Shown one piece after another: positions 9,662 through 44,794 of a stretch of DNA of 64,000 bases (the stretch's first letter is position 1; each line of letters starts with the position of its first letter). Origin of the DNA: an uncultured Gemmatimonadales bacterium. Lineage in GTDB: Bacteria; Gemmatimonadota; Gemmatimonadetes; Gemmatimonadales; Gemmatimonadaceae. A program made the translations under genes and the position numbers. The notes beneath the pieces were generated by a model. It was not told the DNA's origin, did no database searches, and was given only the letters and a program-made list of their open reading frames with translations. Location: contig OY969695.1 of the NCBI GenBank assembly GCA_963701965.1, positions 448,001-512,000 on the forward strand. The letters run 5' to 3'.

Positions 9662-9859
9662 CGATCCCCTCGACTGGGTGCCTGCATCTCTCTGACGTGA
9701 GGATGGTCCCATAAGCAACCGGGGATCACAAATCACGGGGGTGATATGCCATTGTGGCCCCAATGCTTACCAAACGTTGCCGTGTGGTAACCATTTGGCT
9801 ACGACAGCTACGTAACCAGATGGTTCCCAACTAGCAGGGGCGACGAATGGTTTCAGGGA

Positions 9860-24465: not shown

Positions 24466-25850
24466 TCGGACTGCACGAAATCGGCGCTGTGGACTGGCCC
24501 GTGGTCGTAGTCCTGCACGCTCGAGATGTTCGGCATGCCGAAGTCGTTGCCGTTCCAGCCGTTGAAGCCATCCATCTTGAAGAGCCAGAGACCGGTGCGC
24601 ATGTCGGAGATCACGATCAGTCCGTCGTGGTTGCGGACGTCGACGCCGAACGCGCCCTGCATCGACGCTGGTCGTGCTCTGCCACCCGTTGTCCTGCGTG
24701 CCGCCGAAGCCGTGCTCGTGCTCGCACTCGCACGTGAAGTAGTGGCCTTCGGTCTCGGGTGCTTCGGATCCTTGAGATTGAAGATCTGCAGGCCGTCCTC
24801 GTACGCCGACACGAACACGAACGGCCAGCGGACCTCGTGGTTGTGCGACAGGTCGCGCCAGTCGGCCGTCCACGCGCTGATCGGCGTGTCGATGTTCTGC
24901 GCTTGCCCGACTGTCCTCGGCTCAGAGTCCCAGATGCGGAGCGGCGTGTACTGGTACTCCGTCTCGGTCACCGCGTAGTTGCCGTCGGGCGACGGCGTGA
25001 ACGTGTGGGCGACGTCCATGCCGAGGCTCGTGATCGTGAAGAGCTGCTTCGGGCGTCTCGGGCTTGGTGACGTCCCACACCGAGAAGCCGCCCAGGCCGG
25101 CACCGTAGAACTTGTCCTGGTGCGTGGCCGGATCGTAGCCGACGTAGAAGTCGTGGTAGCCGCCGCGCGCCGATCTGCTTGAACGGCGTGGGATTCGGGA
25201 CATCGCCGACCATCGCCGTGCTGCGGGTCCGCGCCCGCGACGATCTTGTCCAGGTCATAGATCACCGCCTTCGACGTCGTTGACCGTCACGAAGTACAGG
25301 ACGCGGCCATCGGAGTGCTTGTAGGCGAACGTGTTGTGGAAGCCGCCCGAGCGACTGCGGGTACTTGATGCGCGCGACGACCTTGACCTTGTTCGGGTCG
25401 GGCAGACCCGGTGACGTCGAAGATGACGGCGCCGAGGTCCTGCATCGGGGCTGCCCTGCATGAACTGGAACGACTGCGCGTAGTAGTAACTTGCCGCCTT
25501 GATCTTGAAGTACTTGCCGTCCATCGCGCCGATGCCGCGGTGCAGCTCGGGGTTCTCGATGGTCCAGTCGTAAGATCTTCTTCGGGCTCGCCGTGATTGC
25601 TGATGTCGTAGATCTGCGCGTCGTAGTTCACGAAGCCGCAGACGTACACGTACGGGCGATTCGGATCCTGCTCGATCTCGATATCCGCCGCTTTCCATGG
25701 CCCTGGGTGCGCCTCAATGTGGGCGAGGTTATGCATCTTTTCGCTCCCGCCGCGTTTCTGCGCGAAATCGACGACCGACGCGCCTGGGTCTTGCGCGCGG
25801 GCAATGGAGGCGACCCCGAAGAGCGCCAGTAAGACAGAGAGTCTACGCAT
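24454..25850 (-). pseudogene. Secreted LVIVD-repeat (beta-propeller) protein, multiply frameshifted
   Basis: Signal peptide MRRLSVLLALFG...AQ; GGFHNTF, AHTFTP, SHNHEV, SAYEDGLQIF and GAFGVD fragments in shifting frames. Confidence 0.65.
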
Positions 25851-26043
25851 GAAGCATCCGGTTATGAGTGGCGGCGAGTGAGACGCGGTCCCACTTTTTG
25901 ATTGCCGGCGGGCCACAGGATCTCGACGGTCGAGTATAGTCCGCCCCAAAAGACCGGACAAGCCATTCGGGCAGCTTGCACCGCACGCTAACCCGGACGG
26001 TTTCGGATGTAGTCACTTGGCGTCAAGCCGTCCAGCCCTCCCA

Positions 26044-26092
26044 TAAACATGGAGCGGCACCGCGAGTCTCCCCGCAGGCCGCTCCATGTTTA
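26044..26092 (-). terminator. Probable intrinsic terminator
   Basis: Perfect 15-bp inverted repeat taaacatggagcggc / gccgctccatgttta just downstream of the stop at 26105. Confidence 0.7.
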
Positions 26093-26104
26093 GTAAGGGG
26101 CAGC

Positions 26105-28778: not shown

Positions 28779-29066
28779 ATGCCGAACGGCTCCAGCGGCT
28801 GGCCAAACCTGTACTCCGTGAACGGGCCCCCCGCGGCCCTCGCGGCGCTCCTCGCTATTCCCGGCATCACGTTCGACGACCACGGGCAGTTCGTGCTCCC
28901 CGACGGCACGCTCGCGCTCACGGCCTATGCCACATCTGACGCCGTGACCGCCGCCCAGGCGGCACAACCCGGCGTGACGATCGAGTTGGTGCTCACCGGG
29001 GACCAACTGCAGCAACAACGGGAAGCCGAGATCGCCAGTCGAGAGGGAGGCGGGGGCGTTGCCTAG
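28779..29066 (+). CDS. 95-aa protein resembling an M14 carboxypeptidase activation (pro) domain
   Basis: AAGGTG before ATG; overlaps the peptidase start; size and apparent beta-alpha-beta-beta-alpha-beta pattern (inferred). Confidence 0.55.
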   Translation: MPNGSSGWPNLYSVNGPPAALAALLAIPGITFDDHGQFVLPDGTLALTAYATSDAVTAAQAAQPGVTIELVLTGDQLQQQREAEIASREGGGGVA

Positions 29067-30402
29067 CTACCTCAGGGCCGACGACATCACGACCCGCCTG
29101 CAAGCCGCCGCGGCCCGGCCGGAGAACCTCTGCACGTTCGGCACGTGCCCGAACGCGACGCCCGGAGACCCGGCCAACAACATCGCCGGACGCAACCCGC
29201 CCTTCGTGGAGATTCACGCCACCACGACCCCGGCCACGCCACGAACCGTGGTCGTGGTGACCGGCGGGGTCCACGCGCGCGAGTGGGCACCACCCGACGC
29301 GCTGGTGAGCTTCGTCGAGAAAATGCTGGACACCAAGGGCACGGACCCCGCGTCGTACCCGTTGCTCACCCAGAATTCGCCGCCCTCTCTCCCTTTCCCG
29401 ACATCCCCTGACACGCCGATCCTCTATCCGGCGTTCACCATGAATGCGCGGAGCGTGCAGCGCATTTTCAACAATATCGATCTCTACATCGCGCCCTTGA
29501 TGAACCCCGACGGGCGGGAGTTCAGCCGAATGCCCCAGTCGATCGTGTCCTGGTGGCGCAAGAATCGGCGCGGGAATGCCGGGCAATGCCTCGACACGCT
29601 CGGCAACGACCAAGGAATCGGCGTCGACATCAATCGCAATTTCGATATCGGGTGGGAGTTCACCACCCTCTACGCGTCATCGTTCCAATCACAGATCAAG
29701 GCGGTCGCGACCGCCTGCCCGGGGCCACCAACCTCTAACGTACAGCACGACGCGGGCGAGACGTTCCGCGGATCGGTCAAAATGGACGAGCCCGAAGTCA
29801 AGAACATGGACTGGCTCCAGAAAAAGGGCGCGCGCGTGTTCTGCGACGTGCATTCGGCCGGACCGCGTATCGTCTATCCCTGGGGTCTGGCCAACGGCAA
29901 TCAGTCGAAGTTTCCAAAACAGAACATCAAGAACCAGAGCCTGGACGGCACACGCGACGGGACGTACGCGGAGTTCGTCCCGACGGCCACCTTGGCCCGG
30001 ATGTACGTGCTCGGCGGACGCATGCAGCACTGCGTTCGCGGCACGCAAACGCTGGATCCCCGTCTCGACTCGGCAAAGGATCCATCCCGGCAGCGATTCA
30101 CGGGTGAGTACGACGTGAGCTCGTCGGGTCAGGGGCTCTACGTCGCGCCGGGCGCAGGCGAAGACTACCACTTCAGCCGGCAGTTCACGGTCAATGCCTC
30201 ATCCACGGAGAAGGCCGCTCCGCCCGAGCTCTTCGCGTACACCATCGAGTGCGGCAGCCAGGCGCAGGGCAGTTTCTGGCCTGACCGTACCTTCGAATTT
30301 CCGAAAATCGAGCGCGAGGTCCACGCGGCCCTCTGGGGCATGCTCTCGTTCATCGCGTCCCCGGCGTTCACCCTTCCGATCACCTGGCCGATCGGCCCGT
30401 GA
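29059..30402 (+). CDS. M14 family zinc metallocarboxypeptidase
   Basis: GVHAREW, NPDG, WRKNR, GVDINRNF, DVHS, YTIE catalytic motifs; no signal peptide. Confidence 0.92.
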   Translation: MPSYLRADDITTRLQAAAARPENLCTFGTCPNATPGDPANNIAGRNPPFVEIHATTTPATPRTVVVVTGGVHAREWAPPDALVSFVEKMLDTKGTDPASYPLLTQNSPPSLPFPTSPDTPILYPAFTMNARSVQRIFNNIDLYIAPLMNPDGREFSRMPQSIVSWWRKNRRGNAGQCLDTLGNDQGIGVDINRNFDIGWEFTTLYASSFQSQIKAVATACPGPPTSNVQHDAGETFRGSVKMDEPEVKNMDWLQKKGARVFCDVHSAGPRIVYPWGLANGNQSKFPKQNIKNQSLDGTRDGTYAEFVPTATLARMYVLGGRMQHCVRGTQTLDPRLDSAKDPSRQRFTGEYDVSSSGQGLYVAPGAGEDYHFSRQFTVNASSTEKAAPPELFAYTIECGSQAQGSFWPDRTFEFPKIEREVHAALWGMLSFIASPAFTLPITWPIGP

Positions 30403-30414
30403 AATTGTCGCACC

Positions 30415-33400
30415 GTGGCCAATGATACCATAGGCGTCCTGGCAACCGAGCTGGCGCAAGTTTTTCAGCCGCTCGAGACACGCCTCGCGTCGGGAAATGT
30501 CATCAGCCTCTTCGCGGAGCTCGGACTCGCCTTTCCGCCCGCGCTCACGGCTCAGGCCGGCGTCTCCAACGCGCTGACGCAGGCGACGACCGCCGTCACC
30601 GCCCTCCCGGCGCTCATCACGCAGCTCGACACGGCGATCAGCGCCAATGACGTCGCCCAGATCGTCGCGGCCATCGGCAAGCTGCTGCAAGCCGCCGCCG
30701 AGGTCTTGACCGCGATCGACGCGATCGCCTCGGCGATCGACGCCGCGGCTTCTTCCCTCCCGGGCCTCACACCGGCCGACGTCAGCGCGTTCGCGGGCGA
30801 GCTGGCCGACGCGCTCCTGGGCTACGTCGTCGTCTCGTACCTGGAGAGCTACTACCCGCGACTGCGCGCCTGCCTCGCGCTGTTCGGCATCATCGAGGCG
30901 ACACCACAGAACACGACGTCGACGGATCCGACGAAACCGCCCTACACCCAGCGCCGCGATCCATCTCGACGCCCTTCCCAATCTGCTCAAGAAGCCGCTC
31001 GACTTCCTCACGTCCGAGTATGGCTGGAACACACCGGGCTTCGACGGCACGCTCCTGCTGGACCGCGGCGCCGACGTCCTCTACGCGTTCGCTGTTCCGG
31101 CGAAGTACGCCAAAGCAACGGCGACGACGCCGCCGTCGATTCGCGTCTTGCTGCTGTCCCTCACCACCAACGCGGCGCTCTCGCCGCCCGGCCTCCGACT
31201 GGCGGTCGAGATTGGCCTCACCGACGGATTCACGATCACGGTGCCGTTCTTTATGGACGGGTGGTCGATCCAGATCGTCGGCAAGGGCGCGCTCGCCACG
31301 GGGCTCGCGGTCGACATCGCGCCGCCCAGCACGATCACGCTCGTGCCGCCGAGCGGAACGCTCGATGGCCAGCTGTGGTTCAATCTCGTCGGCGCACCGG
31401 TCGCCCCGGCGACGACCCTGCCGATCTTCGGCGCCGCGGGCAGCATCGCCGTCCAGGCCGGCGGCATTACCGCGGGAATCGGCGCCGACTTCTCCTGGGA
31501 CGCGGCCAACAACCACGCCACCGGCGAGATGGCGATCCAGGCCGGTGTCTCGAAGGGCCAAGTCGTCATCAAGTCGTCCGACGTCGACAGCTTCCTTTCG
31601 TCGCTGCTGCCACCGGACGGCCTGACCGCCAATTTCGATTTCACCGTCGGGTGGTCCGGCTCGAAAGGCGTCTACTTCACGGGCAGCGCGGGCCTCGAGA
31701 CCACGATCGCCCTCAACCTGTCGATTGGCCCGCTCACGATTCCCACGCTGTACGTGGCGATCGACATCTCGAGCGCCGGACAGCTCTCACTCGAAGCAAG
31801 CGTCGCCGCCGGAGCGACATTGGGACCCATCGCGGCCTCTGTCGATCGGATCGGCGCGTTGGCCACGCTCGCGTTCCAAAAAGGCAACCTGGGCCCCGTC
31901 GACCTGTCGATCGGCTTCAAGCCACCGACCGGACTGGGCATCAGCATCGACGCCGGCCCGATCACGGGCGGCGGATTCATCTCGTACGACCCGCCGAGCG
32001 GTCGTTACTCCGGCATCCTGTCGCTTTCGCTGTACGGGATCTCGATCACCGCGATCGGGCTCCTCGACACGAAGCTCCCCGACGGGCAGTCCGGCTACTC
32101 GTTCCTGATCATCATCAGCGCCACGTTCACGCCGATCCAACTCTCGTTCGGATTCACGCTGAACGGCGTCGGCGGGCTCTGTGGCGTCAATCGCTCGATG
32201 ATCACCGATGCGATCCAGGCCGGCCTCAAGACCGGGTCGATCTCGGACATCCTGTTCCCGCCGGACCCTGTCGCCGACGCGCCGCAGATCATCTCGGAGC
32301 TGAGCACGATCTTCCCGCCGGCGACCGGTCAGTACGTCTTCGGCCCGATCCTCGAGCTGGGCTGGGGCACGCCGTCACTGATCACCGCCAAGCTGGGCGT
32401 GATCATCGAGCTGCCCAACCCGATCGTGATCGCGATTCTCGGCCAGTTGAGCATGGCGCTCCCCACCGAGGACGACGCGCTCGTCGAAATCCACGTCGAC
32501 GTGCTCGGCGTCCTCGACGTCGCCAAGCAGCTCTTCGAGATCATCGCCGACATCTACGACTCGCGGATTGTCACGTTCACGATCTCGGGCGGCATGGCGC
32601 TCATGCTCACCTGGGGCGATGACGCGAACTTCATTTTCTCGGTGGGCGGATTCAATCCGCACTACCAGCCGCCCGCGGGTTTTCCCTCCGTCGATCGCAT
32701 CACGCTCGCCCTGGGCTCGGGCGACGATCTCCGCCTCACGCTCCAGGCGTACCTCGCGGTCACCAGCAATTCGTTCCAGATCGGCGCCAAGCTCGAGCTG
32801 TACATGGGCTTGAGCTCGTTCAACATCGACGGCTGGCTCGGGTTCAATGCGCTGATCACGTACTCGCCATTCTCGTTTATCGTCGACTTCACGGCGGGAT
32901 TGGCGCTGCGCAGCGGCACCAGCGTGCTGATGGGCATCTCCGTGAACGGCACGCTGTCGGGACCCACGCCGTGGCACGCCGAAGGCGAGGCGAGCATCTC
33001 GATCCTGTTCTTCTCGATCAGCGCCCACGTCAGCTTCACGATCGGGAATGCGCAGTCCAACCCGCTGCCGTCGATTAATGCCTGGACGCCACTGCAAGCG
33101 GCGATTCAACTCCCGGGCAACTGGACGGGCGCTCTCCCCGCTGACGTCCAACAGATCGCGACGCTATCGCCACCGGAGAAGAACGCCGCCCCCATTCTGA
33201 TCGACCCCAGCGGGACGCTCACCTTTCAGCAGAAGGTACTGCCGCTCGACCAACCGCTCGACACGGTCGGGAACGCGATCCCCGAGCAGCAGAGTGAGTT
33301 CGACCTCGCCGGTGTCACCCTGGGTGGGGCCTCCGTGCCGTATACCGTCATCGAGGGCGAGTTCGCGCCGGGTCAGTACCGCAACCTGTCCGACGGCGAC

Positions 33401-33847
33401 AAGCTCTCGCTCCCCTCGTTCGAGCCAATGGATGCGGGTTTCACCGTGGGCGGCGGGACGGTCGATTTCGGCAAGCAGTACGACGTCAACATCGTCTATG
33501 AGACGACCATCATCGATCGGACCCGCCCGATTCTCGCGCTCCCGTATCAAATCGCGCGCGATGACACGCTGGCCTGGGCGAAGGCCGGCGCCGCGGCCCA
33601 CGCGCCGCTCCGTACGACGGGCTTGGCCGCGTCCATGCCGGATCCTCGCGCGCCCAAGCTGGTCACGATGCCCGCCGAGCAGTACGTGATCGTCAGCACG
33701 GTCGATCTCACCCCGCGTCCGGACATCGCCGCCGCCGGCACCAAAGGCGACACCTTCGCCGCCCTGTCGGCGCACGTGGCCCGGAACCCGGCGGACCAAG
33801 GCACGCTGCAGGTCATCCCACTCTACGAGCTCGCGGAGGTCGCATGA
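30415..33847 (+). CDS. Large DUF6603-like protein (~1143 aa), one frameshift at ~30955
   Basis: ORF 30415 frame joins ORF 31148 frame if one C is removed (cag cgc [c] gcg atc cat); FKPPTGLG, GGLCGVNR, SVGGFNPHY, AYLAVTSNSFQIGA, LSGPTPW motifs recalled from DUF6603. Confidence 0.7.
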
Positions 33848-36800
33848 GCAACGGCAACGGCAACGGCGACTCCGAACTGGGCTATCATACCTTTCTGCCG
33901 TGGCTGCGCCGCGGGATCGGCATCGAGATCAGTCGCACTGACGATGATCCCACGCCGGCGCCACGCGCTACGCTCGACATTGGCGTCACCATCGGCCCCG
34001 GCCCGCTGTCCACGGGGGCGACCAATGTCTCACTCGCCCTCTACGGCCCGGGCAATGTCGCCACGCTGGATCCCCGCACGGTGATCCGCACCTGGCCGCG
34101 CCCCAATGTCTATCAGTCGGAGCCCAACTACTTCCCGTTGATCGAGCTCCAACCGGCTGACGTGCCGTGGCGCTTCACGCCGGCCCGCCGCAGCGCGGCC
34201 GACCGGTTGCGACCGTGGATCGTGCTCATCGTACTCGCCGACGGCGAGTACGCCAGCGCCGCGGGGTCGATCACCGTCAACTCGGCGGCTACGCTCCCGG
34301 CGCTCGACCAATCCTGGGCCTGGAGCCACGTGCAGATCACGGGCGAGCAGTCGGTGGACGCGGCGACCGTGCTGGATCTCTTGGACAACGACCCCGATCG
34401 CATCCTGGCGCGCCTCCTGTGTCCGCGACAGCTCGCCCCCGATACGGCGTACACGGCGTTCCTCGTGCCGGCGCTCGAGCGCGCGCGCCTCGCCGGGTTG
34501 TCGCAGAACGTGCCCGACACGATCGACGGGCTCGCGCCCGCTTGGACGAGCGGCGAGAGCAACGTCCAACTGCCGGTGTACTATCAGTGGCGGTTCCAGA
34601 CGGGTGACGATGGCGATTTTGCGTCCCTCGTCGAGCGCGTCCAGCCCCGCCCCATGCCGGCGACCGTGGGATCGCGTCCGATGGACGTGAGTGCGGCGGG
34701 CTACATGCTGCCGCCCGCCGCGCCGGCGGCGCCGCTACAGGCGCTCAACGTCGAAGCCGCGCTCCGCGCCCTGGACAGCGCCAGCACGACGTGGGCCACC
34801 GGCGACCGCACGGCTTGGACGAACGCGCTCGCGACGTTGCTCGACACACCAGCCACGCTCCTGGCGTCGCCAGGGGCGGAGCGCGCCGTCGCTCCGCCCC
34901 TCTATGGCCAGTGGTACGCCGCCACCAACCAGCTTGGCGCCGCAGCGGATCCGACGCGCTGGTTTCCGGATCTCAACGCCGACCCCCGCCTCCGCGTGGC
35001 CGCCGGTCTCGGGACGGTCGCCATCCAGGAGAACCAGCAGCAATACCTCGCCGGCGCCTGGGCGCAGGTCGGCGCGATCCGGTCGATCAACGCCAGGCTC
35101 AAAGCCGCGCAACTGGCGCGCGAGACCGCGGTCAGCCTCTATCAGCGCCATCTCACTGTCCTGAGCGATTCGACGCTCATCGCGGTGACGGCTCCCGTCC
35201 ACCCGCGCATCCTCGCCAGCCCGACCACCGTCGCTGCCGTGCTGGCGAATAGTCCGCTGCGTGCCGGGCTGCTGCGTCCAGCCTGGCGTCGCCTCATGCG
35301 GCCCGGCGGCCAGCTCGGCCGGCGCATCGCGAACGCCGGCCGACTCGCCGGCCCCACCGTCGTCGAGCGCGTCAATCTGGGCGCGTTGCGCGTCGCGCCG
35401 CCGCCCACCACGCCGGCGCAACTCACGACGTTGACCACCGCGACGCAGCATACCGTGCCATCCTGGGCGACACCGGGTTGGATGGCGCTCCTGAGCGCGT
35501 TCAGCCATCTGAGTCTCATCGAGTTGATCGTCGCGCTCCTGCTGGCCGTGATCCTGTTTCTCGTGGGCGGGGGCGCGATCGCCATGGTGTTGGGGATCAT
35601 CGTGGTCGCTGGTCAGCTCCTGGGCAGCCAACTCATGGCGAGCGCGCCCATCGCCGATCTCCAGCGTCGCATGGCGCTCCACAACGGCACGCTGACATCC
35701 AGCCAGATCCAAGGGGCTCCGGCCCGCCCGGCGTTCGTTCCGCAGGAGTACAACGGCGCCGTGCCGACGCCGGCACCCGTCGCCGCGATCGGCGCGGCCG
35801 ACTCGGCGAGTGGCGCCCGGTTCCGCTCCGCTGCCGCCGCAATGTTCGCCGAGGTTCAGACGGCGCCGGCCGCCGGCCCGGTGCTCGTGACCGCCGATCT
35901 GGCATCGATCCGATCGAAGGTTGTGGCGGCGCTCGACCCCAAGCTCACGGTGGCCGTGAGCTATCTCCAGCGGTTGACGCTGGCCACCGGAATCGTGTGG
36001 CAACCGAAGGATCCGATCGAGCCGATCATGGCGGCGCCGAGCTTCCCCGATCCCATGTACAAGCCCCTGTTAGCGGTCTCGCAAGATTGGCTATTGCCGG
36101 GACTCGATCAGGTGCCGGCCGACACGATTTCGCTCGTGCAGACGAACGAGCCGTTCATCGAGGCGTACATGGTGGGCGTCAACCACGAGATGACGCGCAC
36201 GCTTCTCTTCAACGAATACCCGATCGATCAACGGGGCACGTATTTCCGGCAGTTCTGGGACTCGTCGACCGCGATCCCACCGGGACAGCCCGAGCCCGAG
36301 AGTCTCAAAGACCTTACGCCGATCAACACATGGGCCGCGGCATCGCTCCTCGGTACGCATTCGAGTCGGGCCACGCCGCCGGGCGGAAGCTATCTGGTGT
36401 TGCTGCTGCGCGCGGAGCTCCTGCGGCGCTACCCGAACACGATCGTGTACGCGAGCCATGCGAAGTGGAACCCGGACGGCTTCACGCGCTCCGTCGACGA
36501 CACCAACCAATCCAAACCACTGTTCTCGGGGACGCTCGGCGCCGGCGTGGGATTCTGGGGGTTTGCGCTCACGGCGGACCAGGTGCGCGGCGCCGACAAG
36601 CCGCCCGGCGATCCGGGGTGGTTCTTCATTCTCCAGGAAGCGCCCACGGAGCCGCGTCTCGGTCTCGAACCCGCTGGCACGACCTTCGGAGGGCCCGTCG
36701 CCAGCTGGCCGGGCATGGCGTGGAGTGATCTCGCGGCCAGCCCGGCGTCGCTCGCCAGCGTCCAGTTCATCGACCTCTCCGCGGCGCTACCCAATACCTC

Positions 36801-36942
36801 GACGGTGACCGATCCGGATCACGCCGTGTGGCACGCGGGCGACGGGGCGCGGGCGTCGGATATCGCCTACATCACGTATCGCGTGCCGATGCGCGTCGCG
36901 GTCCACGGCTCGACCATGATCCCACCCGACGTCGCGCCATGA
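33844..36942 (+). CDS. Large hypothetical protein (1032 aa) with central hydrophobic hairpin
   Basis: Long ORF with GC-rich coding pattern; GGAGG RBS; ATGA overlaps at both ends. Confidence 0.85.
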   Translation: MSNGNGNGDSELGYHTFLPWLRRGIGIEISRTDDDPTPAPRATLDIGVTIGPGPLSTGATNVSLALYGPGNVATLDPRTVIRTWPRPNVYQSEPNYFPLIELQPADVPWRFTPARRSAADRLRPWIVLIVLADGEYASAAGSITVNSAATLPALDQSWAWSHVQITGEQSVDAATVLDLLDNDPDRILARLLCPRQLAPDTAYTAFLVPALERARLAGLSQNVPDTIDGLAPAWTSGESNVQLPVYYQWRFQTGDDGDFASLVERVQPRPMPATVGSRPMDVSAAGYMLPPAAPAAPLQALNVEAALRALDSASTTWATGDRTAWTNALATLLDTPATLLASPGAERAVAPPLYGQWYAATNQLGAAADPTRWFPDLNADPRLRVAAGLGTVAIQENQQQYLAGAWAQVGAIRSINARLKAAQLARETAVSLYQRHLTVLSDSTLIAVTAPVHPRILASPTTVAAVLANSPLRAGLLRPAWRRLMRPGGQLGRRIANAGRLAGPTVVERVNLGALRVAPPPTTPAQLTTLTTATQHTVPSWATPGWMALLSAFSHLSLIELIVALLLAVILFLVGGGAIAMVLGIIVVAGQLLGSQLMASAPIADLQRRMALHNGTLTSSQIQGAPARPAFVPQEYNGAVPTPAPVAAIGAADSASGARFRSAAAAMFAEVQTAPAAGPVLVTADLASIRSKVVAALDPKLTVAVSYLQRLTLATGIVWQPKDPIEPIMAAPSFPDPMYKPLLAVSQDWLLPGLDQVPADTISLVQTNEPFIEAYMVGVNHEMTRTLLFNEYPIDQRGTYFRQFWDSSTAIPPGQPEPESLKDLTPINTWAAASLLGTHSSRATPPGGSYLVLLLRAELLRRYPNTIVYASHAKWNPDGFTRSVDDTNQSKPLFSGTLGAGVGFWGFALTADQVRGADKPPGDPGWFFILQEAPTEPRLGLEPAGTTFGGPVASWPGMAWSDLAASPASLASVQFIDLSAALPNTSTVTDPDHAVWHAGDGARASDIAYITYRVPMRVAVHGSTMIPPDVAP

Positions 36943-39900
36943 GCCCTGTCGAGCTCTCCAACGTCCAGCAGGCGCGGACGGCGCACGCCAGCGCGCAGGC
37001 CGCGGTCGACGCGGCGCGCGCGCGCGTCACGGCGGCAGCCGCCGGCTCCGACGCCTATGCGCAGGCCACCCGGACGTTGGGCGCCGCCCAAGCGACGCTG
37101 GCCAGCGCGCGCAACACGCTCAATCAGACGATCGGTCAACAACTCTCGACGAACAACCCCCCGGGAGACGTCCAACGGCTGGACGCCGACCATCCGATCG
37201 TGTTGTTTCCCGTGCGCGTCGAGACGCGATTTTCATCGGCGCAGTCGGCGTTGCTCATTCGGGTGTATCCCGACGAGATCCTGGCGAACAGCTTCGAGCC
37301 AGAGTTGACCGCCGATGAGCTGGCGTGTGGCCAACTGTACTGGACCGAAGCCGCGGGCACGGTGGGACCGAACAATGCCTGGCGTCACCTGTTGGGGACC
37401 TACCCGTCGCCGCGTGCGGCGTGGATCGTGCTGCAGACGAATCCGGCGAACCCGGCGCCACCGCTTCGCGCGACGTCGTGGACGAAGCCCGCGGTGGCTC
37501 CGCTGTTGCCGGACCGCTGGATCGCGGTCGCGTATCGGGGAGGCGCCGAGATCGCCCGCGCGTGGAGCAGCCCGGTTCTCGAACCGCTGCCACTCACCAT
37601 CGCACCAGACACTCCGGCGGCGTCGTTGGTCGACATCTCCGGCGCCCTCAATTTGGGCGTCGACTATGACCCGGCGGTGCTCTGGACGGTCGACTACCCG
37701 ACCGCCGTCGCGGCCGGTATGGCGTTCGCCCTGCCGCTGCAATCGGCCGACTTCACCGCCGGGATCGACCGACTGCTGGTGCTCGGGGTCAAAACCACGA
37801 TCGCGCCCGCGGACGCCGCCACGGCGATCCGCTCCCTGATCGACGGTCATCACTATACGCGGGGGATCGCGTTCGTGCCGCAGGGCACGCCGACGCACGA
37901 TTCGCGCGAGGTGCCGTCGGGCTATCCGCCGCCGGACCCTAACGGGGCGATCAGCTTCGCCGTGGAAGAAGGACCGGGCTTGGCGACGCCCGACGGCGAT
38001 GGCGTCCTCTGGTCGCGCGCGCTTGGGCTGGCCGATGATACGGTCGCCCACATCGCCGGTGCCGACCGGACGGAGCAAGCGTCGGCCGCCGCGATGAACC
38101 GGGCGCTCTTCCCGGCGACGTGGGAGTACTTTCTGGAGACGATGATGGCGCCGATCGTGAGTGAAGGCACCATCGACGCCACGCGCGAGTACTTCGCGAA
38201 CCGGGTGCGTGCCCGGGGGCACTTTCCGAATTTTCGCATCGGGAACGTGCCGTATGGACTGCTTCCCGTGTCGTCACTCGCCCTATGGAAAGCGATACCG
38301 ACCCGACAACCGGGCGCATCGCCGATCACGAGCGTGTTGCCCGGGATCCTGCGCGCCGCGCAGCCGTTCTGGTCGGCGCAGATCGGCGCGGCCCCGCACT
38401 TGGGCCGGACGAACGACGGCGAAGGCGACGTGCTGGACGCCTTGAGTATGGACGCGAGTGCGCGCACGCTGCGTTTCCGACGGCTGTTGGGCGCCGAGAC
38501 GCTCGCCAACCTGGTGGGGCTGCTGGGCGTCGACTGGGCGCTGGTGACGCTCTTCGGCGATATGACCGCGGCGAACCTGCTGCGCAGCATGGGGTGGTCG
38601 GGCGCCAACCCCCGGGCGTTGACGAACGTGTTCGCGGCCAATGCGCTGCCATTTCGCTTTCCGTTCGTCGCCACGACGTTGTCGGAGACCGACCCGCTCG
38701 CGCCGAACTTCATCACGTGGGTGCGCACGGCGTCGATCGACGATCTGCGCGCCGGCGCGACGCCGTTCCCTGCCCCATCGGTGCTGCTGTTCCGGCTCCT
38801 GAGCTACGCCGCGCTCACCGAGTCTTGGCGAGAAGGCCGGCGCATTCTCCTCGCGGCGGGCGCGGCGGTGGACGATCTCGCGGTCCGCGAGTTGACCGGT
38901 ATCGTCGCGGGCACCGAGACGCGTCCCACCCCGTGGGATTATCTCGGGGCACCGGTGTCATCGGTCACGCACGCGTTGACGCTGGCGCATTTTCTGTCGC
39001 CGATTCAGCCGGGCGAGGCTACGCGGACGCTGCCGCCGGCGATCGTCGCCTATCGCGAGGCGCTGGGCGTGCTCGAGACACTCCCGACCGCCGAGCTGGA
39101 TCGCTTCTGCACGGAGACGTTGGATCTGGCGTCGAACCGCATCGATGCGTGGACCTCGGCGCTCTACGCCGAGCGCTTGGACACGATGCGCTCGACCACG
39201 CCGACGGGCAGTCATGTGGGCGCGTACGCGTGGGTCGAGTCGCTCAAGCCGGGCGGACAGCCGGCCATCCGGCTGAGCGACCGGCGTGCGGCGCTCGACT
39301 CGACCGGCGGATACATCCAAGCGCCGTCCATGGCGCACGCCGCCGCGGCCGCCGTGCTCCGCAACGCGTATCTCAGTTACGCGGGGGACAGCGGCGCGAA
39401 CCCTTACGCGGTCGACCTCTCGTCCGCCCGCGTGCGTGCCGCGCGGTTTGTGCTGGAAGCCGTCGCCGAGGGACAGCAAGTCGGCGCGGTGTTCGGCTAT
39501 CAGATCGAGAGCGGTCTCCATGCCCGTCTAGCGGATGCGCTCATCGACCCGCTGCGCAACGTGTATCCGCTCGTGGCCAACAAAGCCTTCGACTCCGGGG
39601 AGCAAGCCGAAGCGATCGCGGCGCGCAACGTCGTCGACGGACTGGCCTTGCGCACCGCCTGGAAAGCGAACGCGATCCCGTGGGGCACGGCAGGCCTTCC
39701 GGCCGCGGCGTCCGGCGCATTGTACGATGCCCTCATCGCCGAGCTGGGAGCGCTGGACACGACCGTCGACTCCGTCGCCAATGTCCTGCTGGCCGACTCC
39801 GTGTATCAGCTCGTGCAGGGTAGCACGGCGGGAGCATCGGCGAGCCTGGACACGATGGCGCAGGGCGCGCGCCCACCGGACCCCGGCGTTGTGCATCCCG

Positions 39901-41489
39901 TGACTGGCGGCGTCAATGTCACCCATCGCGTGGCGATCGTCATCGGCGACCCCGCCGTCGCCATCAGCACGGGTTGGCCGTCGACCGCCACGCCGCGCGC
40001 TGCCGCCGAGCCCCGGCTCGACGCGTGGGTGGGCAGTCTTCTGGGCGATCCGGGCAACGTGCGCTGCATCGTGCGGGTGACCGACAACTCCGGCGCCTCG
40101 CCGGTCGTGACCGACCACACGGTGACGATGGACCAACTCGGCTTGCGGCCGATCGACATGCTGGCGCTGGCCGCATCGGTCACGGATCAACCCGCGGCGT
40201 CGGAGTTGGACCGGCGGTGCATCACCGCGGCGCTCGGCGACACGCCGGTGAGCGGGACGATCTCCGTCATCTATGCCCGTGATCCGGGCTGGGATCGCGA
40301 CACCGTCCGCGCGGTGCCCGAGCTCCTGCAGGCGGCGCAAGCGCTGCTCCGACTCATCGGTGGCGCGCGGACCATGGCGTGGCAGGATCTCGTGCGCGCG
40401 GCGGACGTCTCGACGACGACGCTGGGAGTCTTGGCGGTCGCGGATGCGGAAGCGCGCGCGACCGCCGCCGAGGCCGGGTTGGCGGCGATCAAGACCCAGT
40501 TGGACGCTGCCGTAGCGCCCGGCGCCACGCGCGCGGCGCTCGTAGCGGCGCTGCGTGCGACGGCGGCGTACGGCGTCACCGGCGCGTACCCCGTACCGGG
40601 CGCGGGCGCGAACGAAGGGGACGTGGCGACGACGCTGATCGACCAGGCGCAGCGGACGCAGGCCGCGGTCAATGCGCGCATTGCCGCGGCCACAGCGGCG
40701 CATCTTCCCCCGACGCCGCCCCCGACGGATGCCGCGCGCGTGGCCGCGGCGGTGGAGATCGCACAGCAGATCTTCGGGCAGGGATTTGTGTTGGTGACGG
40801 GGTTTGCCCCGTCGCCTGCTGCGACGGTGGGGTCGGCGTTGGCGGCGGGGCCGGCATTGGTGGGCGACCCACACGCGCCGATCAAGTGGCTGCAGCAGGC
40901 GAGCCGGGTGCGAACGGCACTTGGCCGTTGGCGCCGCGTCCGATTGCTCACCGAGGCGATGGGTGCGCCGCCCGTCGCGTTGGACATCGCGCAGTTCCCC
41001 GTGGTCGCCGGCGCGCCGCCGCCGCACTGGGTGGGCTTGCCCTTCGCGTCCGAAGCCGATCGCGTGAGCGGACGCCTGTCGGTGGCGCTGGCGCGGCCCT
41101 CGACGCCGGCGGCGACCGCCACGTGGTACGGGCTCACCATCGATGAGTGGGTGGAGCTCATCCCGAACGCGACGGAGATGACCGGTCTCGCGTTCCACTA
41201 CGACGTCGCGAAAGCCGAAGCGCCGCACGCCGTGTTGGTCGCCGTACCACCGGCGTCCGTGGAGCAGTGGGATTTCAATACGCTGGCCACGATCGTCGGC
41301 GAGACGCTGGATCTGGCCAAGATGCGGGGGGTGGACGGCCGTCTTCTCGGTAGCCTGTCACAGCTCATTCCCGCGATCTACTTCACCGCCAACGCCAATG
41401 ACGACACGGTGACGTTCCCATGGCGGGGAACGCTCCGCGCCGAGACGACGATCACGGCGGCGACGATCGCCGCGGGAGCCACCGGGTGA
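36939..41489 (+). CDS. Very large hypothetical protein (1516 aa), N-terminal Ala/Gln coiled coil
   Basis: ATG 36939 overlaps the upstream TGA; uninterrupted 4.5-kb ORF. Confidence 0.85.
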   Translation: MSPVELSNVQQARTAHASAQAAVDAARARVTAAAAGSDAYAQATRTLGAAQATLASARNTLNQTIGQQLSTNNPPGDVQRLDADHPIVLFPVRVETRFSSAQSALLIRVYPDEILANSFEPELTADELACGQLYWTEAAGTVGPNNAWRHLLGTYPSPRAAWIVLQTNPANPAPPLRATSWTKPAVAPLLPDRWIAVAYRGGAEIARAWSSPVLEPLPLTIAPDTPAASLVDISGALNLGVDYDPAVLWTVDYPTAVAAGMAFALPLQSADFTAGIDRLLVLGVKTTIAPADAATAIRSLIDGHHYTRGIAFVPQGTPTHDSREVPSGYPPPDPNGAISFAVEEGPGLATPDGDGVLWSRALGLADDTVAHIAGADRTEQASAAAMNRALFPATWEYFLETMMAPIVSEGTIDATREYFANRVRARGHFPNFRIGNVPYGLLPVSSLALWKAIPTRQPGASPITSVLPGILRAAQPFWSAQIGAAPHLGRTNDGEGDVLDALSMDASARTLRFRRLLGAETLANLVGLLGVDWALVTLFGDMTAANLLRSMGWSGANPRALTNVFAANALPFRFPFVATTLSETDPLAPNFITWVRTASIDDLRAGATPFPAPSVLLFRLLSYAALTESWREGRRILLAAGAAVDDLAVRELTGIVAGTETRPTPWDYLGAPVSSVTHALTLAHFLSPIQPGEATRTLPPAIVAYREALGVLETLPTAELDRFCTETLDLASNRIDAWTSALYAERLDTMRSTTPTGSHVGAYAWVESLKPGGQPAIRLSDRRAALDSTGGYIQAPSMAHAAAAAVLRNAYLSYAGDSGANPYAVDLSSARVRAARFVLEAVAEGQQVGAVFGYQIESGLHARLADALIDPLRNVYPLVANKAFDSGEQAEAIAARNVVDGLALRTAWKANAIPWGTAGLPAAASGALYDALIAELGALDTTVDSVANVLLADSVYQLVQGSTAGASASLDTMAQGARPPDPGVVHPVTGGVNVTHRVAIVIGDPAVAISTGWPSTATPRAAAEPRLDAWVGSLLGDPGNVRCIVRVTDNSGASPVVTDHTVTMDQLGLRPIDMLALAASVTDQPAASELDRRCITAALGDTPVSGTISVIYARDPGWDRDTVRAVPELLQAAQALLRLIGGARTMAWQDLVRAADVSTTTLGVLAVADAEARATAAEAGLAAIKTQLDAAVAPGATRAALVAALRATAAYGVTGAYPVPGAGANEGDVATTLIDQAQRTQAAVNARIAAATAAHLPPTPPPTDAARVAAAVEIAQQIFGQGFVLVTGFAPSPAATVGSALAAGPALVGDPHAPIKWLQQASRVRTALGRWRRVRLLTEAMGAPPVALDIAQFPVVAGAPPPHWVGLPFASEADRVSGRLSVALARPSTPAATATWYGLTIDEWVELIPNATEMTGLAFHYDVAKAEAPHAVLVAVPPASVEQWDFNTLATIVGETLDLAKMRGVDGRLLGSLSQLIPAIYFTANANDDTVTFPWRGTLRAETTITAATIAAGATG

Positions 41490-43216
41490 CCCTCTCCGTG
41501 CGAGCCGGCCCCACGTTCGTGTTGCGTCCGCCATCGATCACCTATTGGGTGCGCGGAGAGCCCGATGCCCGCGGCGAGACATTTGTCGATGCGATGTGCG
41601 CGCGGCTCCGCGATCCGCTGTGGACGCTGACGCGGCAGTGGCAGCTTGGCGAGTTCCTGGGAGGCGACGCCGGTTCGCCAGCCTTCGTGGAAATGGCGGA
41701 GCGTTTCGGCGCGCTGACCGCGTGGCAGGCCACGGGACAGGCGGTGGAGCCGCTGGGCGGCGGGCCGCTCGAGTACGAGAGCGAGCGCGAGCCATTGGAC
41801 GCGGATCTGGCGACGGCGATCGAGCTCGGGCAGACCGCCGAGCGGTTGCTCACCGAGCGCGGGGTGGCCGCGCTCATTCCGGCATTTCGGACAGCGTATT
41901 CGGTGAGCGCGACACCCGTCGACGCCAGCGACCCGTCCGACGTCACGTTTCGCAGTGTGTGCGCGTCGCGCGCGATCAATGGGGTGGCGTTGGCCGCGGC
42001 GGCCCAAGCGGCGCAGCCCGCTCTGCCGGCGACGCCGGCGATCCCGACGGCGGACCAACCGCAGGCGCTGGCCGCGATCAACGACTTTCTGGCCTGGGTC
42101 GCGGCGACCGTCGGGACGCTGGGCACTAGCGATCCCGGTGCGTGGCAACCGGCGACGCTCGGGTACGGGTTGGGGATCACGGGAACCGCGCCCGACGGCA
42201 GCGCGATCACTCTGCAAGCCAGCCCGGCCGACGATGGGCTGCTGGAGTGGTCGGCGCTGGACCTCACGCCTCCAACGGCGCCTGGATCCGCCGCGGCGAA
42301 GGCGCGGGGCGTGATGCCGGCCCACCTGCGATTCCCGGGCATGCCGAACGCCCGCTTCTGGGATTTCGAGACGTCGGGGTCGGATATTGGGTCGGTCGTG
42401 CCCGACAAGCGCGATCTGGCGCGGCTGGCGGTGATGGATCTCATGCTGGTGCACGGGAACGACTGGTTCGTGATCCCGGTCTCGCTGGCGCCCGGCGCGC
42501 TATACGAGGTCACGCAGCTCTTGGTGCACGATGTCTTTGGCGTGATCACGCGGGTCACGCGTGCGGATCAAGAGGCGATCTCGGCGGGCGCGTGGGCGGC
42601 GTTCACCACCAACATCGTTGGCCAGACCGCGCGCGCGCCGTTTTTCGTCTTTCCGCCGAGCGTTGGGGTGGCGATGCAGCGCGGGGCGCCGGTGGAGGAG
42701 GTGCAGTTCGCGCGCGACGAGCAGGCGAACATGGTGTGGGCGCTGGAGCTCGCGACCCAGAACGCGATCGGCGAGGGGTGGTCGGGTCACGAGCGCGATA
42801 TCGCGCGGAACGGCGGGGCGGCACCGCGGCCGCCCGCGCCCCAAGCGGCCGCGATCCCGCTCGTGTACGACATCCAGACTCGTGTTCCGGAGTACTGGAT
42901 TCCGTTTCTGCCGGCGCGAGTCAATGCGGTGACCGGCGCCGCGGCCCTCGAACGCGCCGCGATGCTGCGGGCCGATGGGACGCCGATTGAACCTGTGGGA
43001 CGCATCCTCCGGCCGTCGAGCATCACCGCCGGGTCGCCGTACCGCGTGCCGGAGGAGGAGGTCGCGCGCACCGGCGTCCGCATCGTGCGGTCGGTGTGTC
43101 GGAGCCGCTGGGTCGACGGCACGACCTGGCTGTGGGGCATGCGGCAGAGCGGCCCGTCGCGCGGCGAGGCGAACAGCGCGCTCCGGTTCGACGTCGCTCA
43201 GCCGAACAGCTCGTGA
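41486..43216 (+). CDS. Hypothetical protein (576 aa)
   Basis: GTGA overlap; Trp/Pro-rich blocks RDPLWTLTRQWQLGEF, FPGMPNARFWDFE, GNDWFVIP, RDEQANMVWALE. Confidence 0.85.
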   Translation: MTLSVRAGPTFVLRPPSITYWVRGEPDARGETFVDAMCARLRDPLWTLTRQWQLGEFLGGDAGSPAFVEMAERFGALTAWQATGQAVEPLGGGPLEYESEREPLDADLATAIELGQTAERLLTERGVAALIPAFRTAYSVSATPVDASDPSDVTFRSVCASRAINGVALAAAAQAAQPALPATPAIPTADQPQALAAINDFLAWVAATVGTLGTSDPGAWQPATLGYGLGITGTAPDGSAITLQASPADDGLLEWSALDLTPPTAPGSAAAKARGVMPAHLRFPGMPNARFWDFETSGSDIGSVVPDKRDLARLAVMDLMLVHGNDWFVIPVSLAPGALYEVTQLLVHDVFGVITRVTRADQEAISAGAWAAFTTNIVGQTARAPFFVFPPSVGVAMQRGAPVEEVQFARDEQANMVWALELATQNAIGEGWSGHERDIARNGGAAPRPPAPQAAAIPLVYDIQTRVPEYWIPFLPARVNAVTGAAALERAAMLRADGTPIEPVGRILRPSSITAGSPYRVPEEEVARTGVRIVRSVCRSRWVDGTTWLWGMRQSGPSRGEANSALRFDVAQPNSS

Positions 43217-44265
43217 CGCCTGGCGGCCGTTGGGGAACCCGCGTTGGCCTGGCGTGGGCGGTCGCGGCGTCCGCGGCGGGAGCTCAGGCGCCGCCCTCGC
43301 CCGGCCTCGACACGGGCGCGCTCCGGGCCGCGGACGACCCGACGCATACGATGCGGGCGGTGCTGGTCCAGCGGCACGGCCGGCTGGTCGCCGAGCAGTA
43401 CTTCAACGGCGAGACGGCGGACTCCCTGCACGACATCCGCTCGGCCACCAAGACGATCACGTCGATGCTGATCGGGATCGCGATCGACCAAGGGCGCATC
43501 GCGAGCGTGCATAGCCGTCTCGCGACGCTCCTGTCGGTCCCGCAGGGTTGGCAGCCCGTGACGCTGGCCAATGTCTTGTCGATGAGCTCGGGGCTCGATG
43601 CGGACGATAACACCGCCGACTCGCCCGGCAACGAAAATCGCATGGACGGGCACGGCGATTGGCTGGCGTTCGCCCGGACGATTCCATTGGCGCGTCCGCC
43701 CGGCACCCGTTGGGCTTACGCCTCGCTCAACTACATGCTGCTCGGCGCCATACTTACCGAGGCCACGCACCAACCAGTCCCAGCATTCGCCCAGGCGTCG
43801 CTCTTCGATCCGCTGGGCATCCGCGACGTGCGCTGGACGGCCGATGCAGCCGGTCACACGTCGACGCAGGGCAACTTCCGCATCCGCGCCCGCGACCTGG
43901 TCGCGCTCGGACAGCTCGCGCTCGATCACGGCGTCTGGCACGGCCGCCGCGTGATCTCACGCGCGTGGTTGGACTCGGCCACCGTCCCCCGATTCCCCAC
44001 ACCGTTCGCGGGGTACGACGGGTACGGCTATGGGTGGTGGACCAACACGATGCCCGTCGCCGACCGCCGGATCTTCTACTACTTCATGTCGGGCAACGGC
44101 GGCCAGAAGGTCTACGTGGTGCCGTCCTTGGATCTGGTCGTCGTCGTGACGAGCGCCGGCTACAATCAGCGCTCGGCGCAGGACCGCTCGGAGCGGATCC
44201 TTCGCGACTATTCTGGGTGCGGTGCGCTAGGGATCGACTTACGCTGCTACGTCTACGTAGGCTGA
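43213..44265 (+). CDS. Secreted serine hydrolase (class C beta-lactamase-like)
   Basis: Signal peptide, SATK (SxxK), WAYAS, LFDPLGI, GYGYGWW, SGNGGQ; true stop may be 44230 if one T at ~44201 is spurious. Confidence 0.88.
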   Translation: MTPGGRWGTRVGLAWAVAASAAGAQAPPSPGLDTGALRAADDPTHTMRAVLVQRHGRLVAEQYFNGETADSLHDIRSATKTITSMLIGIAIDQGRIASVHSRLATLLSVPQGWQPVTLANVLSMSSGLDADDNTADSPGNENRMDGHGDWLAFARTIPLARPPGTRWAYASLNYMLLGAILTEATHQPVPAFAQASLFDPLGIRDVRWTADAAGHTSTQGNFRIRARDLVALGQLALDHGVWHGRRVISRAWLDSATVPRFPTPFAGYDGYGYGWWTNTMPVADRRIFYYFMSGNGGQKVYVVPSLDLVVVVTSAGYNQRSAQDRSERILRDYSGCGALGIDLRCYVYVG

Positions 44266-44454
44266 CGTCGAGACCGGACGCGGGATCGGCTGTCCGGCTT
44301 CCTGCAGTCCCTCGATGTGGAATGAAATGGCGTCACGCATGCTCTGCTCCACCTCGGCGCGATTGTGTCCCGTCGCAATGCAACCCGGCAGGTCGGGCGA
44401 ATACGCCGAGTAACCCGTTGGGGTTTCCTCGATCACAATCAGGTAGCGGCTCAT
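44239..44454 (-). CDS. hicB: HicB family antitoxin
   Basis: YLIVIE...YSAYSPDLPGCIATG....EV....DAI.FHIEG. Confidence 0.9.
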   Translation of the reverse strand: MSRYLIVIEETPTGYSAYSPDLPGCIATGHNRAEVEQSMRDAISFHIEGLQEAGQPIPRPVSTSAYVDVAA

Positions 44455-44456
44455 AG

Positions 44457-44590
44457 TCACAGGCTTGCCTGCCTCAGCACGCTGTTCAACGCCCCGAGCT
44501 AGATGATCGTCTTCGCGGCCAGCGACTGTTATCGCTCCCGATCTCGTTAGGGGCTTGACCTGCCGGTGACAGTCGCGCGTGCGAGCGGCC
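44457..44590 (-). pseudogene. hicA: HicA toxin remnant (3' half, frameshifted)
   Basis: RTRDCHRQVKPLTRSGAITVAGREDDHLARG then ALNSVLRQASL* in another frame; matches the HicA GSH.Q...TV.G...L..G.L.SIL.QA pattern; directly upstream of hicB. Confidence 0.75.
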
Positions 44591-44596
44591 GTGCTC

Positions 44597-44794
44597 TTAG
44601 GCGGCCCGAAAGTCCATCTTCCTGGCGTCAGTGACGCGACGGGAGGCGTCGAGGATTTCCAGACTGACCAGGTTGCCCGCCTCGTCATAGTCCAGAATGA
44701 TCCCGGGCTTGTCCTCGTCGCTCTCAGCGATCGGCCGACCCTCTTGCAAGAGTACCGATAATGTGTCGGTCCGTGAGTCGTAGGTCACTTTCAT
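44597..44794 (-). CDS. DUF2283 family protein (putative antitoxin)
   Basis: MKVTYD..TDTL, GIILDYD..GNLV.LEILDAS. Confidence 0.88.
   Translation of the reverse strand: MKVTYDSRTDTLSVLLQEGRPIAESDEDKPGIILDYDEAGNLVSLEILDASRRVTDARKMDFRAA

Follow-up and report, generated by a model that had tools for sequence, protein, structure and literature searches.

A conserved, horizontally mobile four-gene cassette of DUF6603 and three unnamed protein families with an exchangeable upstream enzyme

Introduction

What could be the role of four very large genes, read one after the other behind a peptidase gene, when their products carry no signal peptide and, for three of them, no family name? The question is raised by an operon in a 64,000-nucleotide stretch of the genome of an uncultured Gemmatimonadales bacterium (contig OY969695.1, positions 448,001 to 512,000 of the forward strand), hereafter the window, i.e., the whole stretch at its full length. 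As read from the sequence and from the list of its open reading frames (ORFs), six genes, all on the + strand, occupy positions 28779-43216 of the window, namely a small ORF, an M14 carboxypeptidase gene, a DUF6603 gene and three genes of unnamed families, here called g2, g3 and g4. The last four constitute a conserved cassette that is kept together, in the same order, in distant lineages, that is horizontally mobile, and in front of which the enzyme gene is exchanged between close cassettes. The features of the window copy are as follows.

28779-29066, + strand: small ORF (95 residues), preceded by AAGGTG, a Shine-Dalgarno-like motif; may be a helper or an inhibitor of the M14 enzyme
29059-30402, + strand: M14 zinc carboxypeptidase, 447 residues, TTG start (PF00246, E 9.9e-31); the exchangeable enzyme of the window copy
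30415-30957, + strand: 5' part of the DUF6603 gene, 181 codons, GTG start, first frame, helical Ala-rich N-domain; aligns to residues 7-183 of an intact same-genus homologue
~30958 (any base of the run 30952-30958), + strand: surplus base breaking the DUF6603 frame, located by alignment to the intact homologue
30959-33847, + strand: 3' part of the DUF6603 gene, 962 codons, next frame, with PF20248 (E 3.3e-132) and a predicted large beta-barrel
33844-36942, + strand: g2, 1032 residues, unnamed family, colinear in related loci; N- and C-domains with a variable linker between them
35476-35643, + strand: hydrophobic hairpin of g2, ~residues 545-600, likely two membrane helices (Kyte-Doolittle)
36939-41489, + strand: g3, 1516 residues, unnamed family recognised from the ORF and its homologues; Ala-rich, coiled-coil-like N-terminus
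41486-43216, + strand: g4, 576 residues, unnamed family recognised in the same way; closes the cassette

An earlier note on this DNA, made from its letters without database searches, had described six co-oriented genes, three stop/start overlaps of 4 nt between the large genes, and a distance of 12 nt from the M14 peptidase to the first of them. The orientation is confirmed by the ORF coordinates, the overlaps (ATGA at both 33844 and 36939, GTGA at 41486) and the distance of 12 nt between the M14 stop and the DUF6603 start were read directly in the sequence, and the enzyme is an M14 peptidase by its PF00246 match; in addition, the small ORF overlaps the M14 start by 8 nt. The likeness of the first large gene to DUF6603, proposed in that note, was borne out by the PF20248 match, which reaches 442 bits against a Pfam cut-off of 27. 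The single open frame of 1143 residues attributed to this gene did not hold up, as one extra base near 30958 shifts the frame. The window copy has the PF20248 domain, the gene order and the upstream enzyme of the cassette, with three of the four frames intact.

A conserved and mobile cassette

In the protein collection, homologues numbered at least 1828 for g2, 874 for g3 and 428 for g4, and in a collection holding one genome per species a g2 profile gave at least 599 pattern matches, with a g2 relative encoded in 587 of the 599 listed. Gene order was established by tblastn with the window proteins in a sample of the best 80 loci; the count takes the 56 loci in which the flanks of g2 extend to at least 3 kb upstream and 6.5 kb downstream, the other 24 being too short. 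DUF6603, g2, g3 and g4 are colinear on one strand in 54 of these 56 loci, the exceptions being a locus without a DUF6603 match (L052) and another with a truncated g3 and no g4 (L075). Whether the four genes stay together across genomes had been set as a test in the earlier note, and they do. The 80 loci come from the phyla Myxococcota, Acidobacteriota, Actinomycetota, Chloroflexota, Gemmatimonadota, Nitrospirota, Verrucomicrobiota, Planctomycetota, Bacillota (Neobacillus) and Pseudomonadota (Nitrosomonas), with one archaeon, Nitrosotalea, among them. Since the genes downstream of g4 are unrelated housekeeping genes, differing from locus to locus, the unit ends at g4. An extra large gene (790-1220 residues) was seen right after g4 in four loci, i.e., L007 (7285-10947), L008 (20034-22436), L064 (19431-21809) and L079 (9160-11523), two of the four having YbaB-like and DUF7305 matches and two having no Pfam match; the window has no such gene.

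The occurrence of the cassette is patchy: a survey of 41 genomes of relatives of the window found DUF6603 in 2, and one of 301 genomes in a sample of the phylum found g4 in 5, the own genome being counted both times. It was also found on 13 of 72,556 plasmid records, megaplasmids included, from Streptomyces, haloarchaea, Gemmatirosa, Rhizobium, Paraburkholderia and Nocardia; on a plasmid of Streptomyces europaeiscabiei it sits between integrase genes and is annotated as a "DUF6603 domain-containing protein" followed by three entries of "hypothetical protein." It is from this patchiness and from the plasmid copies, including the one between integrase genes, that the cassette is concluded to be horizontally mobile. 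Carriage by a phage was considered for the single match in the phage collection (L169; MT835531.1, 16271-40042), a record entitled "UNVERIFIED: Bacteriophage sp."; this unannotated 40-kb record from faecal samples, with homologues of g2, g3 and g4 and a 23.8-kb stretch of 76.6% GC, looks like a bacterial contig and was not counted.

Homologues of g2, g3 and g4 go by the name "hypothetical," except one Hcp-fused g4 and one PG_binding_1-bearing g3 homologue, so three of the four families are without a database name and DUF6603 is the only name in public annotation. A literature search returned no paper with "DUF6603" or "PF20248" and none on the gene combination. The cassette as a system is thus undescribed and is defined here by synteny. 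It amounts to ~4,200 residues in four families that recur as one unit in hundreds of species of a dozen bacterial phyla and of archaea.

An exchangeable upstream enzyme

The upstream enzyme gene stands directly before DUF6603 on the same strand, and it was classed in the 59 loci with upstream sequence, using BLAST clusters with Pfam run on representatives only. Serine proteases of families S1 or S8, which have common N- and C-terminal domains, occupy the position in 23 of the 59 loci, PhoD-like phosphatases in 6, PLD-like enzymes in 6, M64-like peptidases in 4, M14 peptidases in 3 and one unnamed family in 3; another 9 loci have other genes (tyrosinase, a galactose-oxidase-like fragment, DUF2515 and others), and no upstream gene was found in the remaining 5. 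The variation of the adjacent enzyme across genomes, which the earlier note had proposed to look for, is therefore real. On a quick maximum-likelihood tree of g4, with 49 rows comprising the class-labelled loci with a g4 match of at least 450 residues and the window, the distribution of enzyme classes needs 19 changes, for a minimum of 7 and a shuffled mean of 28.3. Two sister cassettes differ in this gene, with a PLD-like enzyme in L061 and a PhoD-like one in L069, and the window cassette groups with a locus of the Kofleriaceae, not with the actinobacterial cassettes having M14. The upstream enzyme gene is hence exchanged between close cassettes.

The S1 and S8 enzymes have in common a helical C-terminal domain of ~130 residues with the motif NRRVATVWHRNGGP, which is a candidate docking module, and the proteases of the cassettes carry pro-domain-like N-termini. 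The earlier note had cast the peptidase as cargo or maturase of the complex; of the two, the role of cargo is easier to reconcile with the unrelated chemistries of the swapped enzymes, and the part of maturase is the weaker one.

The M14 enzyme of the window belongs to its family by the PF00246 match and by the zinc-binding and catalytic positions that are kept, namely H72/E75, H265 and E397, which are invariant in four aligned M14 proteins and which we take to be the zinc ligands and the catalytic base. Its N-terminus aligns with those of three homologues and has no hydrophobic leader. The actinobacterial M14 proteins of L050 (3055-4497) and L059 (2914-4362) end in a hydrophobic, Gly/Leu-rich tail of ~45 residues that looks like a tail anchor, and this tail is missing from the M14 of the window and from that of L067. 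In all three other M14 loci (L050, L059 and L067), an ORF of 87-88 residues lies directly upstream of the M14 gene, with 27-32% identity to the 95-residue ORF of the window. The sequence pattern of these small ORFs may resemble that of an M14 pro-segment, although Pfam gives no match to one. Complex prediction for the M14 peptidase with the small ORF, made from 4-row alignments, gave a median score of 0.39 (runs of 0.39, 0.23 and 0.60), the best of three controls scoring 0.00; at least 80% of the contacts coincide between runs, with a pLDDT (predicted local distance difference test) of the partner of at least 69. The mark set for this score lets through 116 of 157 solved complexes, against 2 of 215 mismatched pairs, but scores up to 0.60 take in only 18 of the 157 solved complexes, plus both mismatches that passed. 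Because solved procarboxypeptidase structures exist, the pass may reflect likeness to them. The prediction weakly supports a partnership of the small ORF with the M14 peptidase, and the 95-residue product might hold the carboxypeptidase in a latent or folded state before its release, in the manner of a pro-segment.

Predicted fold of the DUF6603 protein

AlphaFold2 modelled the 965-residue part of the DUF6603 protein that is encoded in the second frame, from an alignment of 41 sequences, with a mean pLDDT of 79.2 and a predicted template modelling (TM) score, pTM, of 0.52. The model is almost all beta, with ~30 long hairpin strands. Foldseek retrieved 12 PDB matches at E ≤0.001, in which ushers, LptD, SlpA, ApoB100 and propeller complexes are mixed, while chains of Rhs cocoons and of TcB-TcC had a Foldseek probability of at most 0.11. 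When the model was compared by VIA-align with 48,161 representative chains, 49 chains had Z ≥8 and all 50 listed matches were membrane beta-barrels, e.g., OpdQ (Z 13.5, root-mean-square deviation (rmsd) 12.1 Å, 266 residues aligned) and MtrB (Z 12.1, rmsd 8.0 Å), but also FyuA, Tom40/VDAC, PapC and FimD. These matches cover residues ~296-699 of the model, which correspond to the Pfam core. Upon re-alignment of the top Foldseek chains, MOMP and OccK2 each reached Z 14.5 with an rmsd of ~11 Å over ~260 aligned residues. In the 41 sequences, the 23 predicted strands have two faces, the one with a mean hydropathy of +2.41 and 2.7% charged residues versus −0.69 and 26% for the other, and the invariant residues are mostly Gly and Pro. 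The core of DUF6603 is accordingly predicted by modelling to form a large beta-barrel resembling those of porins, apolar on one face and polar on the other.

The partner proteins g2, g3 and g4

Hydropathy of g2 (Kyte-Doolittle, 19 residues) peaks at 3.08 at residues 556-574, within an apolar stretch of ~55 residues, and 16 of 24 aligned homologues have a segment above 1.7 at the corresponding position. From its sequence, this stretch is likely a membrane hairpin. In eight loci (L023, L032, L033, L039, L050, L051, L056 and L059, at ~8,100-10,000), only the C-terminal third of g2 matches and ~1.9 kb separate DUF6603 from the g2 match, so that the N-terminal half of g2 would be replaced or highly diverged in that sub-lineage.

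Additional domains provide leads for the two other partners. Among the 120 best homologues of g3, three have PG_binding_1 at the N-terminus and one has repeats of the FG-GAP and DUF346 types. Among the 120 best homologues of g4, four have Hcp as their C-terminal domain (PF05638, E 4e-21 to 5e-17, residues ~570-710). The locus of such an Hcp-fused g4 (L091) is otherwise an ordinary cassette, with no gene of a type VI secretion system (T6SS) in the 4.5 kb downstream, and an 87%-identical relative of the fused g4 is without the Hcp domain.

At the level of domains, the Pfam scan (E ≤0.01) gave no match for the small ORF, g2, g3 and g4, and NCBIfam none for any product of the cassette. Likewise, g2, g3 and g4 had no PHROGs match, the sole PHROG match being a weak one to phrog_788, "tail protein" (E 8.2e-4), within the Ala-rich first 195 residues encoded by the DUF6603 gene. 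Single-sequence searches of the PDB yielded nothing for DUF6603, g2, g3 and g4; one stray match to a short-chain dehydrogenase/reductase (SDR) from the g2 and g4 profiles, at E 0.013, was dismissed. The ESM Atlas returned unnamed clusters only for g3 and no usable match for g2, and comparing the profiles of DUF6603, g2 and g4 with one another revealed no common domain. Signal peptides are absent from all cassette proteins and from the enzyme.

The window copy and its surroundings

The frame that starts at 30415 is coding-like to about residue 181 and Arg-rich nonsense beyond, and the second frame, which contains PF20248, is open over 1045 codons with no start codon before a TTG at 31148. An intact homologue of 1144 residues from the same genus aligns without gap across the junction, i.e., ...PPYTQRR (ending at 30957) followed by IHLDAL... 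(from 30959); since the alignment to one intact protein runs through two frames, the assembly carries one surplus base in 30952-30958. A genome-wide test for frame switches, based on coding runs of at least 300 nt defined by GC content at third codon positions (GC3), in which the first frame had to be open for more than 150 nt past the switch and the second to have no start codon near it, found exactly one event over the 5.12-Mb genome, namely the DUF6603 break. The assembly does not appear to be riddled with indels, and the surplus base may be either a genuine mutation that inactivates the gene or an isolated error of the consensus; if the break is real, the window copy is probably inactive. 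A programmed frameshift was deemed unlikely from reading of the sequence, with no slippery or stop-adjacent site and a first frame open for 1.6 kb.

A scan for promoters found no sigma-70 consensus site, and a scan for terminators found 13 terminator-like sites, none of them after g4. The surroundings in the window are ordinary chromosomal genes. A serine hydrolase of the beta-lactamase/penicillin-binding protein family (43096-44265, + strand; PF00144, E 4e-37) comes within a few dozen bases after g4 on the same strand, with a signal-peptide-like start apparently further in than the first GTG; it was matched in one related locus only (L036, 848-1501, minus strand), far from the cassette. An ORF with a HicB-like antitoxin domain is found at 44239-44688 (− strand; PF15919, E 1.5e-9). 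On the other side, the region 22400-26100 holds overlapping minus-strand ORFs (23444-24154, 23970-25265, 25255-25698 and 25287-25961); the ORFs at 23970-25265 (− strand) and 24526-24978 (+ strand) have no Pfam match, and the GC3 filter makes no clear gene call in this region.

Apart from the weak match to phrog_788, scans at the sequence level with Pfam, PADLOC, PHROGs and Phage_sheath_1 brought no match to models of extracellular contractile injection systems (eCIS), Tc toxins, T6SS or defence systems, in agreement with the candidate novelty that the earlier note had seen in the locus. Phage_sheath_1 has no match in the window's genome, and T6SS-type Pfam domains (sheath, Hcp, VgrG and PAAR) are found neither in the operon nor in the 31 other ORFs of the window. 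Elsewhere in the genome, a VipB gene (E 2e-138) adjoins an Hcp gene at ~4,419,000-4,421,000, and there are a second full Hcp and two partial Hcp-like matches (4,757,400; 3,154,000-3,156,600).

Possible role of the cassette

A conserved set of genes, no catalytic or NTPase signature, a leaderless and swappable hydrolase, apolar elements, and the accretion of extracellular-type domains lead to a reading of export, delivery or presentation. We tentatively favour, as one possibility, that the cassette is a self-contained, membrane-associated machine which exports or delivers the leaderless upstream enzyme. The g2 hairpin, the DUF6603 barrel, the PG_binding_1 of g3 relatives and the Hcp of g4 relatives suggest a link to the membrane or envelope. 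In such a machine, the DUF6603 barrel and the g2 hairpin would form the membrane-crossing part, with g2 anchored by its hairpin, g3 and g4, whose relatives have peptidoglycan-binding and Hcp domains, could form an envelope-contacting or conduit part, and the upstream enzyme would be the passenger. The stoichiometric complex of the earlier note, whether it would serve delivery or act as a lipid conduit, is a matter of inference. A bolder form, in which the leaderless giant barrel of DUF6603 and its three partners would make up a self-contained translocation machine that inserts without the usual secretion or barrel-assembly systems and ships interchangeable hydrolases in Gram-negatives, Gram-positives and archaea alike, seems doubtful.

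Several observations weigh against an export or delivery machine. The cassette also occurs in Bacillota, in Actinomycetota and in an archaeon, which have neither an outer membrane nor machinery for inserting barrels. For the barrel matches, rmsd values are 10.5-15.5 Å, which makes the barrel a prediction at the level of topology and not a superposable fold; the Foldseek TM-scores are only 0.08-0.25, in a list that also holds propeller-rich complexes, and the alternating faces of the strands fit a beta-sandwich, a lipid-binding cavity or a membrane barrel equally. The hydrophobic segment has no equivalent in 8 of the 24 g2 homologues, and the Hcp and PG_binding_1 additions are rare and may each come from a single lineage. 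The AlphaFold2 model of g4 is poor (mean pLDDT 60.6) and has no fold match, i.e., nothing at E ≤0.001 by Foldseek in PDB and BFVD and, in a wide VIA-align comparison, a best Z of 4.8 for a helical subdomain only, which does not show a new fold. Hidden Markov models of the S1/S8 N- and C-domains found no counterpart in the M14, PhoD, PLD and M64 enzymes or in the small ORF, and no immunity gene is evident. To these points are added the broken frame of DUF6603 in the window copy, and the fact that the search found no paper and no solved structure for any of the four proteins, which are known from genes and models.

An intracellular conflict or anti-phage system, in which the giant proteins would sense infection and the swappable enzyme would kill or arrest the cell, is unlikely, even though many defence systems have swappable effectors of such kinds and the protease, PLD and phosphatase genes could be taken for them. 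The patchy, horizontally moved distribution, with plasmid copies and one between integrase genes, would suit it, as would the lack of signal peptides and the presence in bacteria and archaea regardless of envelope type. However, PADLOC-DB 2.0 (2023) has 0 families for all 7 products, Pfam and NCBIfam detect no NTPase, nuclease or nucleic-acid-binding domain in the ~4,200 residues, and no restriction, CRISPR or abortive-infection gene is present in 22 + 57 sampled neighbour proteins or in the window; besides, PG_binding_1, FG-GAP and Hcp, which some homologues have accreted, are domains of extracellular type, and tyrosinase and galactose-oxidase-like neighbours would be odd suicide effectors. 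Another proposal is a cage or scaffold, i.e., a large cytoplasmic or surface assembly sequestering, activating or displaying a hazardous enzyme, and it appears quite unlikely: no shell-protein family or fold was found, the enzyme classes have no targeting peptide in common, and neither the g2 hairpin nor the amphipathic barrel could do without a membrane or an extensive buried surface. What speaks for it is that proteases, PLD and tyrosinase without leader would be harmful if free in the cytoplasm, that the proteases have pro-domain-like N-termini and M14 a separate helper ORF, that invariant Gly and Pro in DUF6603 are as in a structural protein, and that it would be workable in any envelope type.

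Should the upstream enzyme be a maturase that processes the giant proteins instead of a passenger, its gene would be well placed 12 nt from the DUF6603 start, and peptidases (S1, S8, M14 and M64) do account for 30 of the 59 classified loci; PhoD-like, PLD-like and tyrosinase genes nevertheless hold the same position in sister cassettes, and one conserved set of substrates would hardly call for chemistries so unrelated, which makes this account improbable. A cargo or adaptor complex of the genome's own T6SS is brought to mind by the g4 homologues fused to Hcp and by the T6SS sheath gene and Hcp genes at ~4.42 Mb, but the operon lies ~3.9 Mb from these genes, VipB is found in 0 of 5 other cassette-bearing genomes (completeness not given), the g4 of the window is without an Hcp domain in Pfam, and so is the 87%-identical relative of the fused g4; this is highly improbable.

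If the cassette is indeed a device for delivery or export, it would open a new way of moving enzymes or toxins in folded form and supply new pairs of effector and helper, and were it a defence system or a cage instead, it would still be a new class. To the cassette as such, the window adds the variant with M14 plus helper and four leads, namely the barrel predicted for DUF6603, the hydrophobic hairpin of g2 and the fusions of g4 relatives to Hcp and of g3 relatives to a PG-binding domain. Cultured carriers make the cassette directly testable, namely Tunturiibacter lichenicola, Neobacillus citreus, Rhizocola hellebori and Nitrosomonas oligotropha, as well as Streptomyces plasmids.

Comparison with known systems

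With outer-membrane beta-barrels, i.e., OccD/OccK, maltoporin-type porins, TonB-dependent receptors and PapC/FimD, the DUF6603 model would have in common a predicted meander barrel of ~18-22 long strands (Z 12-14.5) and strands that are dyad-amphipathic. It differs from them by an rmsd of 10.5-15.5 Å and a sequence identity of 4-12%, by an Ala-rich helical N-terminus with no Sec signal peptide or hydrophobic leader, by the occurrence of the family in organisms without outer membrane as well, and by a barrel predicted to be embedded in a multi-domain protein of ~1140 residues. As for procarboxypeptidases, an M14 catalytic domain is preceded in both cases by a conserved unit of ~90 residues (the pro-segment having ~95 residues), although in the window this unit is a separate, overlapping ORF and not part of the same chain, the small ORF has no Propep_M14 match (E ≤0.01), and the enzyme has no signal peptide.

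Tc (ABC) toxins and Rhs cocoon effectors are large leaderless multi-subunit sets with an exchangeable payload, a very large all-beta component and horizontal transfer, and the window cassette would have the same general features in this functional comparison. Unlike them, the cassette has no Pfam match of RHS/YD, TcdB, SpvB or TcA type (E ≤0.01), and its presumed payload is a separate gene of 430-950 residues, not a C-terminal domain. The T6SS Hcp proteins and Hcp-effector fusions have a counterpart in the one lineage where a true Hcp domain ends g4, with the difference that Hcp is here at the C-terminus of a 570-residue protein of the g4 family and that most cassettes, that of the window included, are without Hcp. 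Finally, the RefSeq proteins with PF20248 represent a name and not a characterised system, and the window copy departs from them in its broken frame and its rarer M14 enzyme (3 of 59 loci); together with their three unnamed neighbours, they nonetheless present, on the plasmid of Streptomyces europaeiscabiei, the same four-gene order as the window.

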